Below are positions 1-5,796 of a stretch of 5,887 nt of DNA, piece by piece. The translations under genes and the position numbers were made by a program. Where the stretch lies: the NCBI RefSeq assembly GCF_003334815.1, contig NZ_QOWO01000070.1; one strand, given 5' to 3'. Numbering within the stretch: the first letter of the stretch is position 1; every line of letters begins with the position of its first letter. A model generated the notes under the pieces. That model saw nothing but the letters and a program-made list of their open reading frames with translations, searched no databases and was not told the origin of the DNA. This DNA comes from Escherichia coli (GTDB taxonomy: Bacteria; Pseudomonadota; Gammaproteobacteria; Enterobacterales; Enterobacteriaceae).

Positions 1-95
1 ATCGACGATTGCTGGAAAGGCTGGGCCATACTCCTCCGGCAGAAGCAGAAAAAGCTTATTATGCTTCCATCGGAAACAATGATCTGGCAGCCTGA
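1..95 (+). CDS. C-terminal 31 codons of IS3-family transposase OrfB (partial; 5' end outside window)
   Basis: Reading from base 3 gives RRLLERLGHTPPAEAEKAYYASIGNNDLAA then TGA at 93..95. This is the same as the C-terminus of the 290-aa ORF at 3770..4642 except for one D to N change. Confidence 0.8.
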   Translation, partial: RRLLERLGHTPPAEAEKAYYASIGNNDLAA

Positions 96-112
96 GTTCA
101 CAGATAAAACAC

Positions 113-137
113 TCTCCAGGAAACCCGGGGCGGTTCA
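113..137. repeat. Terminal inverted repeat (IRR) of IS629-like copy 1, about 25 bp
   Basis: The reverse complement of the terminus, TGAACCGCCCCGGGTTTCCTGGAGA, matches the IRL at 5811 (TGAACCGCCCCGGGAATCCTGGAGA) at 23 of 25 positions. Exact IR length is approximate. Confidence 0.65.
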
Positions 138-145
138 CTTCCCAA

Positions 146-179
146 CCATAATATTTCTGTCATTTCTGCCCCCTATTAT
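146..179 (+). promoter_or_regulatory. Putative promoter of the phytase-like gene: a perfect Pho-box half-site CTGTCAT (157..163), a 10-bp spacer, and a -10-like TATTAT (174..179)
   Basis: CTGTCAT is the 7-bp PhoB half-site consensus, and its spacing to the -10 resembles PhoB-dependent promoters. The distal half-site (146..152, CCATAAT) is weak, and no canonical -35 is present. Confidence 0.25.
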
Positions 180-226
180 GACGTTGTTTTTACTTCTGAG
201 CGATAACAACGAAAAGAGACAATGAC

Positions 227-1570
227 ATGCACAACTCCAAAATCCGACAAGCTGTACTGGTTGGATGCATGACGCTGAGCGCTAACCTGTGGGCCGAAGC
301 GCAGCCGGTGCAGGCAACGCTGGCTGGGCATGCACTGTTGCCAGTAACATCCGCCGTTTCAACTCCGAAGGATGCGCCGAGCGATCTGCAACAGAGCGGC
401 AAATACACCAGCGGCAAACGCGTCACCGAGCTGGGCAGCGTGGCGGGCAAATCCGCAGATCGTCTGACTGGACTCGGCCTGCCGATCAACGGTCAGCCGT
501 TGCAGGGCCACTCAGGTATCAAACACATGCCCGACGGTACCTACTGGGTGCTGACTGACAACGGCTTCGGCAGCAAAGCCAACTCCCCGGACGCCATGTT
601 GTACCTCAACCACTACAAAATCGACTTCAAAGACGGCACGGTAGTACCGCTGAAGACGCTTTTCCTGCATGATCCGGATAAGAAGGTACCGTTCCACATC
701 ATCAACGAGAGTACCGAACAGCGCTATCTGACCGGCAGCGATTTTGATCCCGAAAGCTTCCAGTTTTCCGACAATGCCTTATGGATCGGTGATGAGTTCG
801 GTCCTTACCTGATCAAGACCGACCTGAACGGCAAGGTGCTGGCGGTGTTCGATACTGAAGTGGATGGAAAGGTGATTAAATCGCCGGACAACCCGACGCT
901 GACCCTACCTGGCGCGCCGGACGGCAAGCAGAATTTCCAGGTTGCGCGTTCCAAAGGCTTTGAAGGCATGGCCATCTCGCCGGACGGCAGTAAGCTGTAT
1001 CCGCTGTTGGAAGGGGCATTGTGGGACGGTGAGCAGTTCGAGAACGTTGGCGGAAAACGCTACCTGCGTATGCTGGAGTTCGACGTCAAACAGCAGGTCT
1101 GGACTGGTCGCAGCTGGCAGTACGTGCTGGAAGACAACCAGAACGCCATCGGCGACTTCAATATGATCGATGACACCCACGGGCTGGTGATCGAGCGCGA
1201 CAACGGCGAAGGCACTACGGATAAAGCCTGCGTCGTCGGTGCGCCGACCAACAACTGTTTCAGTCAAGTAGCCAAGTTCAAACGAGTGTATAAAATCGCT
1301 TTCTCGGACACTAACGTCGGTAAACCTGTCGAAAAACTGAGCTATATCGACCTGATGAATATTCAGGATCCGAACAAGCTGGCACGCAAGCCGCTGAGTG
1401 ACGGTGTGCTGACCTTCCCGTTTGTCACCATCGAGAACGTGGATGTGGTTGACGCGAACCACATTATTGTAGGCAACGATAATAACTTCCCGTTTTCCTC
1501 CAGCCGCTGGCCTAATATGGCGGATGACAACGAGTTTATTCTACTTAATGTGAAGAATTTTCTGAAGTAG
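227..1570 (+). CDS. Sec-secreted phytase-like beta-propeller protein (esterase-like activity of phytase type family), 447 aa; function uncharacterised
   Basis: Long ORF with an N-terminal Sec signal peptide (hydrophobic core LVGCMTLSANLWA followed by EAQ) and a weak RBS (AAGAGA) 8 nt upstream. Repeated motifs (DNGFG, GDEFGP, FEGMAISPDG, ERDNGEG, GNDNNFPF) look like the phytase-like fold. The family call is from memory, not a search. Confidence 0.7.
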   Translation: MHNSKIRQAVLVGCMTLSANLWAEAQPVQATLAGHALLPVTSAVSTPKDAPSDLQQSGKYTSGKRVTELGSVAGKSADRLTGLGLPINGQPLQGHSGIKHMPDGTYWVLTDNGFGSKANSPDAMLYLNHYKIDFKDGTVVPLKTLFLHDPDKKVPFHIINESTEQRYLTGSDFDPESFQFSDNALWIGDEFGPYLIKTDLNGKVLAVFDTEVDGKVIKSPDNPTLTLPGAPDGKQNFQVARSKGFEGMAISPDGSKLYPLLEGALWDGEQFENVGGKRYLRMLEFDVKQQVWTGRSWQYVLEDNQNAIGDFNMIDDTHGLVIERDNGEGTTDKACVVGAPTNNCFSQVAKFKRVYKIAFSDTNVGKPVEKLSYIDLMNIQDPNKLARKPLSDGVLTFPFVTIENVDVVDANHIIVGNDNNFPFSSSRWPNMADDNEFILLNVKNFLK

Positions 1571-1792
1571 GGGGGAGATCATCTCATCGCTTACCTTAAA
1601 ACTATCATAAGGGTTTACTTCCCTTCAGCGGCGCACAAGGCGCAGGCTTCTGGCTTTCAGTCTTATCCAGGAGGAACATACTGAAAGGCCTGAGTAAACA
1701 TGAATAAAAGGAATATTATATAACAGATGATTCTAAACCACGCGACAAAGCGTTGAAGGAAGCCTGCGCGCAGCATGACGGGGCTTTACCAT

Positions 1793-1826
1793 AAAAAAAC
1801 GCAGGCTAACCGCGCCTGCGTTTTTT
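1793..1826. terminator. Bidirectional rho-independent terminator shared by the convergent phytase-like gene and phoX
   Basis: A perfect 8-bp GC-rich stem (ACGCAGGC at 1799..1806 pairing with GCCTGCGT at 1814..1821) with a 7-nt loop, flanked by an A7 run (1793..1799) and a T6 run (1821..1826). It lies 20 bp downstream of the phoX stop. Confidence 0.8.
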
Positions 1827-1845
1827 ATGACGGATGAAGCAGAAA

Positions 1846-3825
1846 TCAGGTGCCGATCATACCGCCGTCGGCTTTCACGATAACGACGGTTGAGGAACGC
1901 GGACGACTGGCCTTATCGCCGTCGGGCCAGCTTGATACTGCCGTCGGATGCTGCGGATCGCTCAGCCCTTCGGCTGGCTCGCCAGGGTGCTGGATGTTAA
2001 TAAACAGCGTCCGGTTATCCGGCGTGAACGCGATGCCGGTGATTTCGCAGCCACGCGGGCCGGTCAGGAAGCGGCGAAACTCGTTGGTACCGGGGATCGT
2101 CGCCACCATCTGGTTGTTGCCCATGCCTTCGTAATCTTTACGGTTGATGGTTGATGACGACACGTCGGTCTGGATCCACAGCACGCCGCGGTGATCGAAG
2201 CTCAGGCCGTCGGCGCTGCCGAATTCCGCGCCCTTCATGCTACCTTTGGCTTCCGGTTTGTCAGTATCGGTGCGACCGCCCATCACCAGAATATCCCAGG
2301 CGAACTGCAGCGCGGTCGGGTCGCCGTTCTGCTCCAGCCAGTGAATGATGTGACCGTAAACGTTTTTGCCGCGCGGGTTGGCCGCATCCACCGGCGCTTT
2401 GCCTTCCTTACCGCGATCGCTGTTGTTGGTGAGCGTGCAGTAAACGCTGCCTGTGTGGTATGGATCAACCGCAATCCACTCCGGGCGGTCCATTTTGGTG
2501 GCGCCCACGGCGTCTGCCGCCAGACGGGTTTTAATCAGCAGGTCGCCCTGGTTTTCAAAGCCTTTGCTGGCGTCAAGCCCGTTTTGGCCGAACACCAGCG
2601 GTAGCCACTCGCCTTTGCCGTCATCGTTAAATTTCGCCACATACAGCGTGCCTTTCTCCAGCAGGCGCATGTTGGCTTTGCGATCCCGCGGGTTGAATTT
2701 GCCTTCCGAGACAAATTTATAGATGTATTCGAATTTCTGGTCATCGCCCATATAAACCACAACGCGGTTATCCGGGGCGAGCGTCACCGCCGCGCCTTCG
2801 TGCTTGATGCGGCCAAGCGCGGTGTGCTTGCGCGGCACTGAATGCGGATCGTATGGATCGATTTCCACCACCCAGCCGAAGCGGTTCGGCTCGTTCGGCG
2901 TGACGTCAACGCTGAAACGCTTATCCACTTCGTTCCAGCGGTAAGAGCCGTCGCTGTCGCTGATGCCGTAACGTTTTTCCAGCGGGTTCATCTCCGCTTT
3001 TTTCACGAAAATATCGGACCAGTTCTCTTCGCACGTCAGATAGGTGCCCCACGGCGTAAAACCGTTGGCGCAGTTCTGCATGGTGCCGAGAATGGTTTCG
3101 CCTTTCGGATCGTCAGCCGTTTGCATCAGCGGGTTATGCAGCGCCGGGCCGGTGATTTTCATCGGCGTGTTAACGGTGATGCGGCGCGCGAAAGATGACG
3201 GGCGCACCACTTCCCAGCCCTGGGCCGCTTTTTTTACTTCAATGACCGACACGCCCATTGCGTTCTGTCCTTTCAGCGCTTTATCAGCGCTCCAGTTGGC
3301 ATCGCCATCTTTAAACAGCAGACCGTTATCGATGTATTCATGGTTCATGGCGAGCAGGCCGTGATCGACGCTGTGCCCGCCCTGCGGCAGGCTAAACCAC
3401 GCCATACCGTCGTGGTGCATCCCGGCCTGCGCCGCCTGCTCTTCCGTGGTGTTGCTGCCGTCGGTTTTAAAAACCGGCTGATTCCCGGCAAGCCCGGTGG
3501 CGTCGCCCCATTTGTATAAGGGCTTCGCGATGTAGCCTTCCGGCACGATAACGGTATCTTCCGTGGAAACCGGCAGACTGGTGAAACCGAGCGCCGTCGC
3601 TTTGCCGAGGTTACCGCTTACGCTGGAGACCGCTTTCGCCAGCGCGTTTTCCGGTTTCAGCAGAAACGGGAACGTTGCCGCGGCACCGGCGACCGCGCCT
3701 GTCTGTAACAGGCGGCGGCGCGACAAATAGACTTCCGCCACCTGCGAAAACGCGCGGTTATCACTCGGGTTGCTGGTCTCTTCACTATGCTCACGTTTGA
3801 ATAAAGTTTTTAACGATCTGCCCAT
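1846..3825 (-). CDS. phoX: PhoX-family alkaline phosphatase/phosphodiesterase, Tat-exported, 659 aa
   Basis: N-terminal twin-arginine motif LSRRRLLQTGAVAGAAATFPFL followed by an AxA-type cleavage region (ALAKA). Size and beta-propeller-like composition are typical of PhoX, including a WGTYLTCEENW motif. An RBS (AAGGAAA) lies about 8 nt upstream of the ATG at 3825. Confidence 0.8.
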   Translation of the reverse strand: MGRSLKTLFKREHSEETSNPSDNRAFSQVAEVYLSRRRLLQTGAVAGAAATFPFLLKPENALAKAVSSVSGNLGKATALGFTSLPVSTEDTVIVPEGYIAKPLYKWGDATGLAGNQPVFKTDGSNTTEEQAAQAGMHHDGMAWFSLPQGGHSVDHGLLAMNHEYIDNGLLFKDGDANWSADKALKGQNAMGVSVIEVKKAAQGWEVVRPSSFARRITVNTPMKITGPALHNPLMQTADDPKGETILGTMQNCANGFTPWGTYLTCEENWSDIFVKKAEMNPLEKRYGISDSDGSYRWNEVDKRFSVDVTPNEPNRFGWVVEIDPYDPHSVPRKHTALGRIKHEGAAVTLAPDNRVVVYMGDDQKFEYIYKFVSEGKFNPRDRKANMRLLEKGTLYVAKFNDDGKGEWLPLVFGQNGLDASKGFENQGDLLIKTRLAADAVGATKMDRPEWIAVDPYHTGSVYCTLTNNSDRGKEGKAPVDAANPRGKNVYGHIIHWLEQNGDPTALQFAWDILVMGGRTDTDKPEAKGSMKGAEFGSADGLSFDHRGVLWIQTDVSSSTINRKDYEGMGNNQMVATIPGTNEFRRFLTGPRGCEITGIAFTPDNRTLFINIQHPGEPAEGLSDPQHPTAVSSWPDGDKASRPRSSTVVIVKADGGMIGT

Positions 3826-4642
3826 TGCGGTTTCCTTTCAAAAAATCGATTTCAAGGGGAATCATTTTTATGCACGTGAGTCTACGGAAAGTATGTTACA
3901 GAAATATAATGAGATACAGCGCGTATACGATGAAAATCATCAGGTGTACGGTGTGCGTAAAGTCTGGCATCAGTTGTTACGGGAAGGAATCAGGGTGGCC
4001 AGATGTACAGTGGCGCGCCTCATGGCGGTTATGGAACTTGCCGGTGTTCTCCGGGGTAAAAAGGTCCGCACAACCGTCAGCCGGAAAGCCGTTGCCGCAG
4101 GCGACCGCGTAAACCGTCAGTTCGTGGCAGAACGTCCAGACCTGTTGTGGGTGGCTGATTTTACTTACGTCAGCACATGGCAGGGCTTTGTTTATGTGGC
4201 GTTCATCATTGATGTGTTTGCCGGATACATCGTGGGATGGCAGGTCTCATCGTCCATGGAAACGACATTCGTGCTGGATGCACTGGAGCAGGCGTTGTGG
4301 GCCCGTCGGCCGTCCGGCACAATTCATCACAGCGATAAAGGCACTCAGTATGTATCGCTGGCCTACACGCAGCGGCTTAAGGAAGCCGGATTACTGGCAT
4401 CAACAGGAAGTACTGGTGACTCGTATGACAACGCGATGGCGGAGAGCATCAATGGTCTTTACAAGGCGGAGGTAATACACCGTAAGAGCTGGAAAAACCG
4501 GACAGAAGTGGAGCAGGCCACACTCACGTGGGTGGACTGGTATAACAATCGACGATTGCTGGAAAGGCTGGGCCATACTCCCCCGGCAGAAGCAGAAAAA
4601 GCTTATTATGCTTCTATCGGAAACGATGATCTGGCAGCCTGA
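3770..4642 (+). CDS. IS3-family transposase OrfB (DDE integrase core), 5'-truncated fragment; the first 45 or so codons of this ORF are not IS-derived, so it is probably non-functional
   Basis: DDE-type motifs are present (WVADFTYV, HHSDKGTQYVS, AESINGLYKAEV) and the C-terminus LERLGHTPPAEAEKAYY is typical of IS3-family OrfB. There is no upstream orfA or frameshift window, and the ORF's 5' end overlaps the phoX start on the other strand. Confidence 0.8.
   Translation: MLVSSLCSRLNKVFNDLPIAVSFQKIDFKGNHFYARESTESMLQKYNEIQRVYDENHQVYGVRKVWHQLLREGIRVARCTVARLMAVMELAGVLRGKKVRTTVSRKAVAAGDRVNRQFVAERPDLLWVADFTYVSTWQGFVYVAFIIDVFAGYIVGWQVSSSMETTFVLDALEQALWARRPSGTIHHSDKGTQYVSLAYTQRLKEAGLLASTGSTGDSYDNAMAESINGLYKAEVIHRKSWKNRTEVEQATLTWVDWYNNRRLLERLGHTPPAEAEKAYYASIGNDDLAA
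3864..3901 (-). promoter_or_regulatory. Candidate phoX promoter: -10-like ATAAAAAT with a weak Pho-box-like CTGTAACATACTTTCCGT about 12 bp upstream (on the phoX-sense strand)
   Basis: Position and spacing relative to the phoX ATG are plausible. The proximal half-site matches the consensus poorly. The site lies at the junction with the truncated IS copy. Confidence 0.2.
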
Positions 4643-4684
4643 GTTCACAGATAAAACACTCTCCAGGAAACCCGGGGCGGTTCA
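3905..4684 (+). mobile_element. 5'-truncated IS3-family (IS629/IS1203-like) copy 2: the 3' roughly 60 percent of the element, with IRR but no IRL and no orfA
   Basis: Recognisable OrfB sequence starts around EIQRVYDENHQVYGVRKVW (about 3911) and runs to the terminus ...CGGTTCA at 4684. Upstream of about 3905 the DNA is the phoX 5' region. The left boundary is approximate, give or take about 15 bp. Confidence 0.8.
4660..4684. repeat. Terminal inverted repeat (IRR) of IS629-like copy 2
   Basis: Same terminus as 113..137. Similarity to 1..137 ends exactly after TTCA at 4684. Confidence 0.65.
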
Positions 4685-4705
4685 CAATTTTCTTCAACTG
4701 CAGGA

Positions 4706-4735
4706 CCTGACGGAAAACAAGTGATTTCCGTCAGG
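4706..4735. repeat. Perfect 11-bp inverted repeat (hairpin) CCTGACGGAAA / TTTCCGTCAGG with an 8-nt loop, 21 bp outside the IS629-like right end
   Basis: The two arms are exact reverse complements, read directly from the sequence. No U-run follows on either strand, so it is not a canonical intrinsic terminator. Confidence 0.6.
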
Positions 4736-4951
4736 GAGAAATCGCTTAGCGGGTGTTATCGCAGAAATTCCCACGGAGCCCCATCAACGCCAACCGGTGT
4801 ATATTTCATTTGTGGAGTCTCCAGTCTGAGGGAGCTTTATGCATCCCGTATTGGGCACTATGATGCCGGAAATCTGCGAGGCTCCACACCTGCCAGTTTC
4901 ACCCTTTTAACCATCATACTGCTCCGTGTTTAATTGTGTGGGATGCGTTCA

Positions 4952-5122
4952 TTACATTTTCACCATTTTGCCACTGCGGCCCCGGAAGACGAAGATATGC
5001 CCGGAGAACGGGTCATCTTTCAGCGTGTTCTGCACCTTCGAAGCTAGGCCGTTGAAGCCACAACGCATATCTGTGATGCCAGCGATGATCCAGATTCTGG
5101 TACCGGTCGGCAGCGTTATCAT
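4952..5122 (-). CDS. tnpB: IS66-family TnpB (orf2), truncated: 56 aa where about 115 aa is expected
   Basis: My own translation of the minus strand gives MITLPTGTRIWIIAGITDMRCGFNGLASKVQNTLKDDPFSGHIFVFRGRSGKMVKM then a stop, carrying the IS66 TnpB hallmarks (TDMR.GF.GL, DPFSGH.FVFRGR). Its ATG overlaps the upstream ORF's TGA as ATGA, the usual IS66 orf1/orf2 coupling. No frame continues the TnpB sequence beyond 4952. Confidence 0.7.
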   Translation of the reverse strand: MITLPTGTRIWIIAGITDMRCGFNGLASKVQNTLKDDPFSGHIFVFRGRSGKMVKM

Positions 5123-5796
5123 CGGATCCCCCCTTTCATTTCGCGAATGAGCACCCTAAGAAGTTCCGGAGTGAGAGGGGCAAACAGTTTTACCACACCT
5201 GATTTAAGATGCAGCTCACACTGTGGTGAGTCTACGGTAGTGTCACTCTGGCTTTCATCAGACTTATTTCGCCAGAAAGGATTTGTCACCGGTTTGACGG
5301 GGTCAGGAGTCTCAGTGATTGCCACCGGAACGGCCTGGCATTCCTGGAGATCCTCATCATTCAGCAAGCCCTCTTCATACAGTCTTTTCCAGTTAAACAA
5401 CAGATTGTCATTAATATTGTGCTCTCTGGCGATCCGTGCAACGACTGCACCAGGCTGTAATGCCTGTTTTACCAGCCTGATTTTAAATTCACGACTGTAG
5501 GAGGTTCGTCGTTCTTTTCGCCATGTGCTTTCGCTGATTTGAGGATCATCAGGTAATTCCTTCTTTCTGTTGGCATAAAGTATGGCATCGAGTTGGGCGA
5601 CTGAAAGTGATTCAGGTAATGGCCAGGTAATACCGGAGGCATTAAATCGTTGAAAGAGATTATGAATGGTGGAATGACTGAGACCTAACTGCAGGGCGAT
5701 AGCCCGGACAGATAATTGCTCGTCGAATCTTAGACGTAATGCGTCTGGCAAATAAGAGCGAAAGCCGGTGATATCTTTTGCTGTCTGAGAATTCAT
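5119..5796 (-). CDS. tnpA: IS66-family TnpA (orf1)-like HTH protein (C-terminal 130 aa or so) with an N-terminal 90 aa or so resembling an IS21-family IstA HTH; a possible in-frame chimera
   Basis: The C-terminal part (RRTSYSREFKIRLVKQALQPGAVVARIAREHNINDNLLFNWKRLYEEG ... ELHLKSGVVKLFAPLTPELLRVLIREMK) has the IS66 orf1 HTH and C-terminal pattern and is translationally coupled to tnpB. The N-terminal part (LSVRAIALQLGLSHSTIHNLFQRFNASGITWPLPESLSVAQLDAILY) resembles the IstA N-terminus with its WPLP motif. Both calls are from memory. Confidence 0.6.
   Translation of the reverse strand: MNSQTAKDITGFRSYLPDALRLRFDEQLSVRAIALQLGLSHSTIHNLFQRFNASGITWPLPESLSVAQLDAILYANRKKELPDDPQISESTWRKERRTSYSREFKIRLVKQALQPGAVVARIAREHNINDNLLFNWKRLYEEGLLNDEDLQECQAVPVAITETPDPVKPVTNPFWRNKSDESQSDTTVDSPQCELHLKSGVVKLFAPLTPELLRVLIREMKGGIR

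Follow-up and report, generated by a model that had tools for sequence, protein, structure and literature searches.

A truncated IS629-like element joined to the predicted Pho-box promoter of phoX on plasmids of Escherichia coli and Escherichia albertii

Results

Organisation of the phoX locus

The window analysed here, a 5,887-nucleotide stretch of Escherichia coli DNA (contig NZ_QOWO01000070.1), carries an intact phoX gene and, convergent with it, a gene of the esterase-like phytase family, with IS629-like sequences on either side of the pair and IS66-family remnants further to the right (Table 1). Positions 1-4782 of the window are 100% identical to the E. coli plasmid pJNE25-005_2 (L003), in which the left IS629-like copy is intact, and both the phoX gene and the IS fragment upstream of it are already annotated in public records. 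To the right of this IS relic, positions 4685-4782 match the region of the same plasmid that lies upstream of pemI/pemK, after which the window diverges; the corresponding flank of sister plasmids has astA (EAST1) among other IS remnants. An Rfam scan of the window returned no match.

The phoX product combines a PhoX domain (Pfam PF05787, residues 80-615, E=4e-167) with a Tat signal peptide (TAT_signal, residues 34-53, E=0.003), the pairing that identifies a PhoX alkaline phosphatase, and its orthologues are 60-81% identical over their full length. We collected phoX loci from 80 species, including 36 enterobacterial loci (L004-L034, L036, L046, L077-L079) in which the start codon is conserved. 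The reading frame is intact in every plasmid examined that bears the junction described below, where pN/pS, as a measure of continued selection, rests on at most 12 differences within the clade, too few to be informative. Among 5426 complete E. coli genomes 99 have phoX; 95 of the copies are on chromosomes, with an identity of about 94%, and chicken or APEC strains account for many of these. The three chromosomal loci that we examined (L002, L084 and L085) lie amid transposase pseudogenes and decayed ABC-transporter genes.

Table 1 Features of the window, with the basis on which each was placed
Feature	Position	Strand	Basis or sequence
Left IS629-like copy, 3' end with right inverted repeat	1-137	+	blastn to IS reference, 99.6% identity
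Right inverted repeat of left IS629-like copy	124-137	+	Comparison with IS reference
Second predicted Pho-box promoter, esterase-like phytase gene	146-179	+	CCATAATATTTCTGTCAT (146-163), 10 bp, TATTAT (174-179)
Esterase-like phytase family gene, the module's other cargo gene	227-1570	+	PGAP in identical plasmids; chromosomal homologue, 93% identity
Intrinsic terminator-like hairpin, 3' of phoX in the interval between it and the convergent esterase gene	1797-1817	-	Terminator scan
phoX, intact, 659 codons, Tat-exported alkaline phosphatase	1846-3825	-	Pfam and orthologue comparison
Predicted phoX 5' leader	3826-3878	-	Inferred from -10 position
Native DNA upstream of phoX, 85 bp	3826-3910		IS-free relatives match through 3910
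-10 hexamer TAGACT	3879-3884	-	Aligned with TAnnnT of all relatives
10-bp spacer ATACTTTCCG	3885-3894	-	
Predicted phoX Pho box, classical 18-bp register	3895-3912	-	Positional orthology to the block in 36 orthologues
Proximal half-site CTGTAAC	3895-3901	-	Conserved block
A/T linker ATTT	3902-3905	-	
Distal half-site TCATTAT	3906-3912	-	Only TC (3911-3912) IS-derived
Native/IS junction	3907-3911	.	Most parsimonious break 3910/3911
Truncated IS629-like element (IS3 family), IS positions 537-1310	3911-4684	+	Ungapped blastn
IS66-family tnpB, truncated	4952-5122	-	
IS66-family tnpA remnant	5119-5796	-	
Further IS629-like copy, left end	5811 onward		14 bp upstream of tnpA start

A broken IS element ends 85 bp upstream of the phoX start codon

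To place the edge of the IS relic we used an intact neighbouring copy of the element from plasmid pJNE25-005_2 (L003, 2828-4137), which is 1310 bp long with terminal inverted repeats starting TGAACCGCCCCGG, and which we take to be IS629 from its inverted-repeat sequence and length; PGAP gives 'IS3 family'. In a blastn alignment this copy matches window positions 3908-4685 at 94.3% identity without gaps and shows no similarity to 3826-3907, so that it does not continue through 3826-3905. When the window was compared base by base with both the IS reference and the native relatives L001 and L002, which have no IS at this position, the relatives matched the window through 3910 and the IS match started at 3911, which is IS position 537. 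Beyond 3910 the IS-free copies (L001, L002, L084 and L085) continue into unrelated native sequence, and the AA at 3908-3909 is common to both parents, which gives the junction its formal range. The sequence-only reading had proposed that a truncated IS abuts the phoX upstream region, that 'about 80' bp of native DNA remain before the start codon at 3825, and that everything upstream of the junction is IS-derived; these points hold, the measured distance being 85 bp.

The relic retains the right inverted repeat (4671-4684) and the 3' portion of orfB. The first 536 bp of the element are missing from it, and with them the left inverted repeat, all of orfA, the frameshift region and the 5' portion of orfB, and it is therefore unable to transpose alone. 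Thus, while its 94.3% identity to positions 537-1310 of a complete element bounded by terminal inverted repeats marks it as IS629-like, 3911-4684 does not have the two inverted repeats and the orfA-orfB arrangement with programmed frameshift that make up a complete element. In agreement with this, PGAP annotation of the identical plasmid describes 3911-4642 as 'IS3 family transposase, incomplete, missing N-terminus'. What remains of the element is transcribed divergently, away from phoX.

Since the break lies inside the IS, and not at an IS end, we interpret the junction as the endpoint of a deletion or illegitimate recombination and not as a transposition product. Close to the join there is an imperfect 2-bp (AA) match, and the stretch shared by the two parents is at most 2 bp. 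Both truncated copies of IS629 and deletions associated with it are well documented (PMC3271280; PMC9943667), as is microhomology-mediated joining promoted by IEE (PMC9943667), and by analogy an IEE/MMEJ-type deletion is a plausible origin for the junction.

The identical junction is present in four complete E. coli plasmids and in seven plasmids from PLSDB. In all, eight complete plasmids, from E. coli and E. albertii, have both the junction and the promoter in identical form; the junction region has the same sequence in L003 and in L087-L090. These plasmids have IncF and IncI backbones and come from poultry, pigeons, a dog, humans and pig-farm soil. Its recurrence in several plasmids means that the junction is not an assembly artefact, and its recurrence together with an identical promoter in all eight points to a single old event that was inherited and spread. 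Strain RHB16-SO-C05 carries a junction-type plasmid (CP099214) together with CP099215, the source of L001, and has two phoX copies.

A conserved block in enterobacterial phoX upstream regions resembles a Pho-box promoter

When the upstream regions of the 36 enterobacterial orthologues are aligned, a gap-free block of the form nTGTTAT-AAAW-nTGTAAY-AAAn-6 nt-TAnnnT lies 69-84 bp upstream of the shared start codon. No variation is seen at distal half-site positions 3-7 (GTTAT) or at proximal positions 2-6 (TGTAA), which hold 2.0 bits; distal position 2 holds 1.3 bits, and each of the 12 columns upstream of this holds at most 0.6 bit. The hexamer at the end of the block is TACACT, TAGACT or TATAGT in the relatives, at a fixed spacing of 10 bp from the box in all 36.

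To score this block we built a PhoB weight matrix from 55 E. coli PhoB ChIP-seq sites (PMC10294691), a set independent of the phoX sequences, on which the ChIP sites themselves have a median of 14.5 bits, a lower quartile of 12.6 and a minimum of 6.1. The matrix puts the block first in 35 of the 36 upstream regions, with scores of 10.7-16.0 bits. For 37 more distant orthologues, from Pasteurellaceae, Neisseriaceae, Wohlfahrtiimonas and Chromobacteriaceae, the best sense-strand match reaches at least 12.6 bits in 29; these matches are usually canonical TGTCAT-N5-TGTCAT boxes, they are for the most part located between 68 and 130 bp ahead of the start codon, and in several cases TAnnnT comes 9-10 nt further on. 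A box followed by 9 nt and TAnnnT occurred in only 0.1% of shuffled upstream regions. The spacing between box and -10 is that of the phoA promoter, whose sequence we checked against E. coli genomes (108/108 identical). Pho boxes are known to overlap the -35 position and to need strict spacing (PMC2695467; PMC3511308; PMC10294691), and the orthologue alignment and matrix scores together identify the enterobacterial phoX block as a predicted Pho-box promoter that lacks a -35. A literature search found no data on expression, transcription starts or binding for phoX of any enterobacterium; the Pho box of enterobacterial phoX, though unsurprising in itself, appears to be undescribed in the searchable literature.

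At distal half-site position 5 all 36 enterobacterial boxes have a T (TGTTAT), a base seen there in none of the 55 ChIP sites. This invariant T could reflect a second regulator such as ArcA, whose sites consist of TGTTA repeats.

The junction falls 2 bp inside the distal half-site

Mapped onto the window, the block gives the promoter listed in Table 1, in which the box stands where a -35 would be, with 10 bp between it and the downstream -10. The junction is 2 bp inside the distal half-site, as a result of which the -10, the spacer, the proximal half-site, the linker and 5 of the 7 bp of the distal half are all retained. From the position of the -10, transcription would be expected to start near 3871-3873, within a leader that has a Shine-Dalgarno AGGA at 3833-3836 and is not conserved outside E. 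coli. Relative to the CTGTCAT repeat, the proximal half CTGTAAC matches at 5/7 positions and the distal half TCATTAT at 3/7, with ATTT as linker. At 8.1 bits, a score that is reached or exceeded about once per 1300 nt in the window, the box ranks above the weakest ChIP site and below the lower quartile of these sites.

This register replaces that of the sequence-only reading, which had been right to put the junction at the Pho-box position and had quoted two strings that do occur where it said, and which the 36-orthologue alignment shows to have set box and -10 one half-site (11 bp) out of register. Its box (3884-3901) scores 5.6 bits, lies off the conserved block and is composed of the proximal half-site, the 10-bp spacer and the first base of the true -10, which it thereby overlaps; it was said to end at the junction and ends 9 bp short of it. 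Its -10, ATAAAAAT (3864-3871), is downstream of the conserved TAGACT, is not conserved in relatives and corresponds to about +1 to +8 of the predicted transcript, within the leader. We therefore rejected the register 3884-3901/3864-3871.

A consensus scan of 3700-4100 on either strand found no sigma-70 -35/-10 pair, and in the IS-derived DNA we found neither an extra in-phase PhoB half-site nor a new -35. One candidate for an extra half-site in this DNA, CTGTATC, was rejected as it lies 18 bp from the proximal half-site and out of phase.

Most of the predicted loss in box strength probably predates the junction

Four alleles of the E. coli-type box allow the damage to be divided into steps. 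The ancestral form, TTGTTAT-ATTT-CTGTAAC, is found in the chromosomal copy L085 and scores 14.3 bits; the chromosomal copies L002 and L084 have a T-to-C change in the proximal half (CCGTAAC, 12.2 bits); the IS2-bearing plasmid copy L001 has a G-to-A change in the distal half (TTATTAT, 10.9 bits); and the junction box of the window, with TCATTAT, scores 8.1 bits. Compared with L001, the junction alters a single box base, T to C at distal position 2, where the 36 natural boxes have C in four cases and G in one. The other deviation, A at distal position 3, replaces a G that is present in 36/36 relatives and in the chromosomal E. coli copies, and this G-to-A change at 3910 is common to the window and L001. 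Because L001 is free of the junction, the change was not caused by the rearrangement. L001, on plasmid CP099215.1, is also the closest relative of the window by synonymous divergence, with a pS of 0.10 where the chromosomal copies have 0.18, and for this reason the G-to-A at 3910 was most simply inherited and would predate the junction. By the matrix scores, then, the larger part of the predicted loss in PhoB score belongs to the G-to-A at 3910 and not to the junction.

None of the relatives shows conservation upstream of the box, which means that no other element was lost, and, since conservation starts at distal position 2, the junction removes only one conserved position. The native DNA that is missing from the window beyond 3910 is represented by L002 5160-5200 and L001 6323-6352. 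In L001, which represents a second phoX lineage, an IS2 (6353 onward) is inserted 35 bp upstream of the position of the window's junction, at a distance of 33 bp from the box; this IS2 is oriented like phoX, and its right end faces the promoter. We looked for the native sequence beyond this IS2 and found that it does not continue. In chromosomal copies the distal half-site forms half of a 16-bp palindrome, perfect in L002 (TATAACAATTGTTATA), imperfect in L001, L084 and L085 and absent in other genera, which the window junction cuts 2 bp from its centre; judging from this distribution, the palindrome is probably fortuitous.

The neighbouring esterase gene has a second predicted Pho box close to an IS end

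The predicted Pho box of the esterase-like phytase gene scores 12.0 bits, the third-best match in the window, and begins 8 bp past the end of the left IS629 copy. It is conserved in a chromosomal copy (L086) whose homology to the window begins at about position 144, and its distal half, CCATAAT, resembles the phoX hybrid half-site, both containing CAT(A/T)AT. From the two predicted promoters it would follow that both cargo genes keep little more than minimal Pho promoters.

The two genes sit in segments with different relatives. The esterase segment (138-1588) is 93% identical to a chromosomal island beside a second ugpB-like gene, the phoX segment (1589-3910) is 94-95% identical to other plasmids and chromosomal islands, and their join near 1585-1589 bears no IS trace. 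Among relatives, an esterase gene beside phoX was found only on one distant Lautropia contig (L049, 54% identity) and in no enterobacterial relative. A composite transposon (IS629-cargo-IS629) was considered and rejected: no matching target-site duplication of 3-4 bp was found around either the intact copy or the module as a whole, and both flanking IS copies are further truncated in other plasmids.

Discussion

The simplest account of these data would be that an old deletion or illegitimate recombination fused IS position 537 to the phoX promoter, 2 bp inside the Pho box. phoX would be driven by a classical PhoB-type promoter, in which a pair of 7-bp direct repeats, spaced with an 11-bp period, stands in for the -35 ahead of TAGACT. 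Phosphorylated PhoB would still bind the intact CTGTAAC and the degraded TCATTAT and recruit RNA polymerase under phosphate limitation, on a box that is predicted to be weaker and of lower affinity than the ancestral TTGTTAT-ATTT-CTGTAAC. Most of this weakening would come from the earlier G-to-A at 3910 and not from the junction, and the IS fragment, reading away from phoX, would contribute no promoter. On this evidence phoX has probably retained its Pho control in a weaker form.

The sequence-only reading had suggested that the rearrangement may have changed phoX regulation or uncoupled it from phosphate. For uncoupling, the junction and the G-to-A together would have destroyed the distal half-site, so that PhoB no longer activates and phoX on these plasmids is silent, expressed by read-through only, or constitutive. 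Of the six distal positions that are conserved, two (2 and 3) do deviate, one of them the otherwise invariant G, and the drop from 14.3 bits in L085 to 8.1 bits takes the box below three quarters of the ChIP-bound sites, while the minus-strand IS66-family genes upstream (4952-5796) could in principle read through to phoX. However, the base that the junction itself introduced is one found in 4/36 natural boxes, and there is no damage to the -10, to the spacing or to the proximal half-site, which is the one in contact with sigma-70. Poor distal half-sites are, moreover, found at ChIP-bound, strongly PhoB-dependent promoters, such as phnC (ATTAAC) and phoB (TTTCAT) (PMC10294691). The gene is intact, its promoter is identical in eight plasmids of differing hosts and replicon types, and no alternative promoter was detected; read-through, for its part, is no general solution, because the right-hand context varies among the plasmids. 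As only one conserved position was lost at the junction and the rest of the promoter was kept, uncoupling is less likely than weakened Pho dependence, and we regard it as an unlikely outcome with a chance that is still appreciable.

A bolder extension of retained control would be that successive IS-associated deletions trimmed the esterase-like phytase gene and phoX to minimal Pho promoters and so produced a compact, self-regulated phosphate-starvation cassette that is spreading between plasmids, with the hybrid half-site raising the induction threshold of phoX. This idea draws on the closeness of IS sequence to both boxes, the left IS end stopping 8 bp short of the esterase box and the right junction cutting 2 bp into the phoX box, and on the range of the module over IncF and IncI plasmids, over E. 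coli and E. albertii, and over birds, dogs, humans and a pig farm. We hold it to be speculative and rather improbable.

Less probable again, and in our view distinctly so, is that the block is the site of another regulator of the OmpR/PhoB family with 11-bp-period repeats, for example ArcA, so that the junction affects a different input. The distal TGTTA of all enterobacterial copies, with a T unseen at this position in E. coli PhoB ChIP sites, would suit such a regulator, as would the partly palindromic nature of the block, whose reverse strand scores 7-12 bits. Yet the block is the top PhoB-matrix match in nearly all upstream regions, canonical TGTCAT boxes occupy the same place in distant orthologues, and the location of the block in place of the -35, spaced as at phoA, is that of an activator, which suits PhoB but not a repressor. 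Likewise, phoX belongs to the Pho regulon elsewhere, being PhoB-regulated in V. cholerae (PMC4714964), and PhoB binds TGTAAC/TGTAAT half-sites in vivo at yibT, mglB, omrA and phoE (PMC10294691). Finally, the notion that there is no real junction, either because the IS continues through 3826-3905 or because the assembly is chimeric, is already refuted by the dissimilarity of the IS reference to 3826-3907, the match of native relatives through 3910 and the same join in eight independently assembled complete plasmids, and we give it practically no weight.

The junction is therefore a real but ordinary mobile-element scar, truncated IS629 relics and Pho-box promoters both being of textbook kinds. 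The analysis locates a previously unannotated promoter and predicted Pho box of enterobacterial phoX, and it describes a disruptive-looking IS scar that leaves nearly the whole regulatory unit in place, which is of practical use for annotation and for making sense of the accessory phosphate-scavenging genes that plasmids of E. coli and E. albertii carry. A phoX that turned out to be de-regulated would provide a small natural case of IS-driven rewiring of a Pho-regulon gene; neither outcome alters the understanding of IS elements or of PhoB.

Among known elements, the relic compares with the IS629, IS1203 and IS3411 isoforms: like their truncated E. coli relics it is a broken IS3-family element, and it differs from the isoforms themselves in its internal break and in the loss of its first 536 bp. 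IS1, IS2 and IS5 can alter promoters by forming hybrid promoters or by read-out activation. As in such insertions, IS sequence here lies directly upstream of the phoX core promoter; unlike them, the relic faces away from phoX, presents internal orfB sequence in antisense and no IS end, and makes no -35-like hexamer or outward promoter.

Compared with the PhoB-activated promoters of E. coli, the window differs in its distal half TCATTAT, where the T2 and G3 that are usual are missing and the IS has supplied the outer 2 bp, and enterobacterial phoX in general has TGTTAT in place of TGTCAT in the distal half of its predicted PhoB site. In its overall design the predicted phoX promoter nevertheless follows phoA, pstS, phnC and phoE, with two 7-bp repeats and a 4-bp A/T linker replacing the -35, and, as at phoA, the box lies 10 bp upstream of a TAnnnT -10. 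Its proximal CTGTAAC resembles the ChIP-bound TGTAAC/TGTAAT half-sites, and it shares a weak distal half with phnC and phoB.
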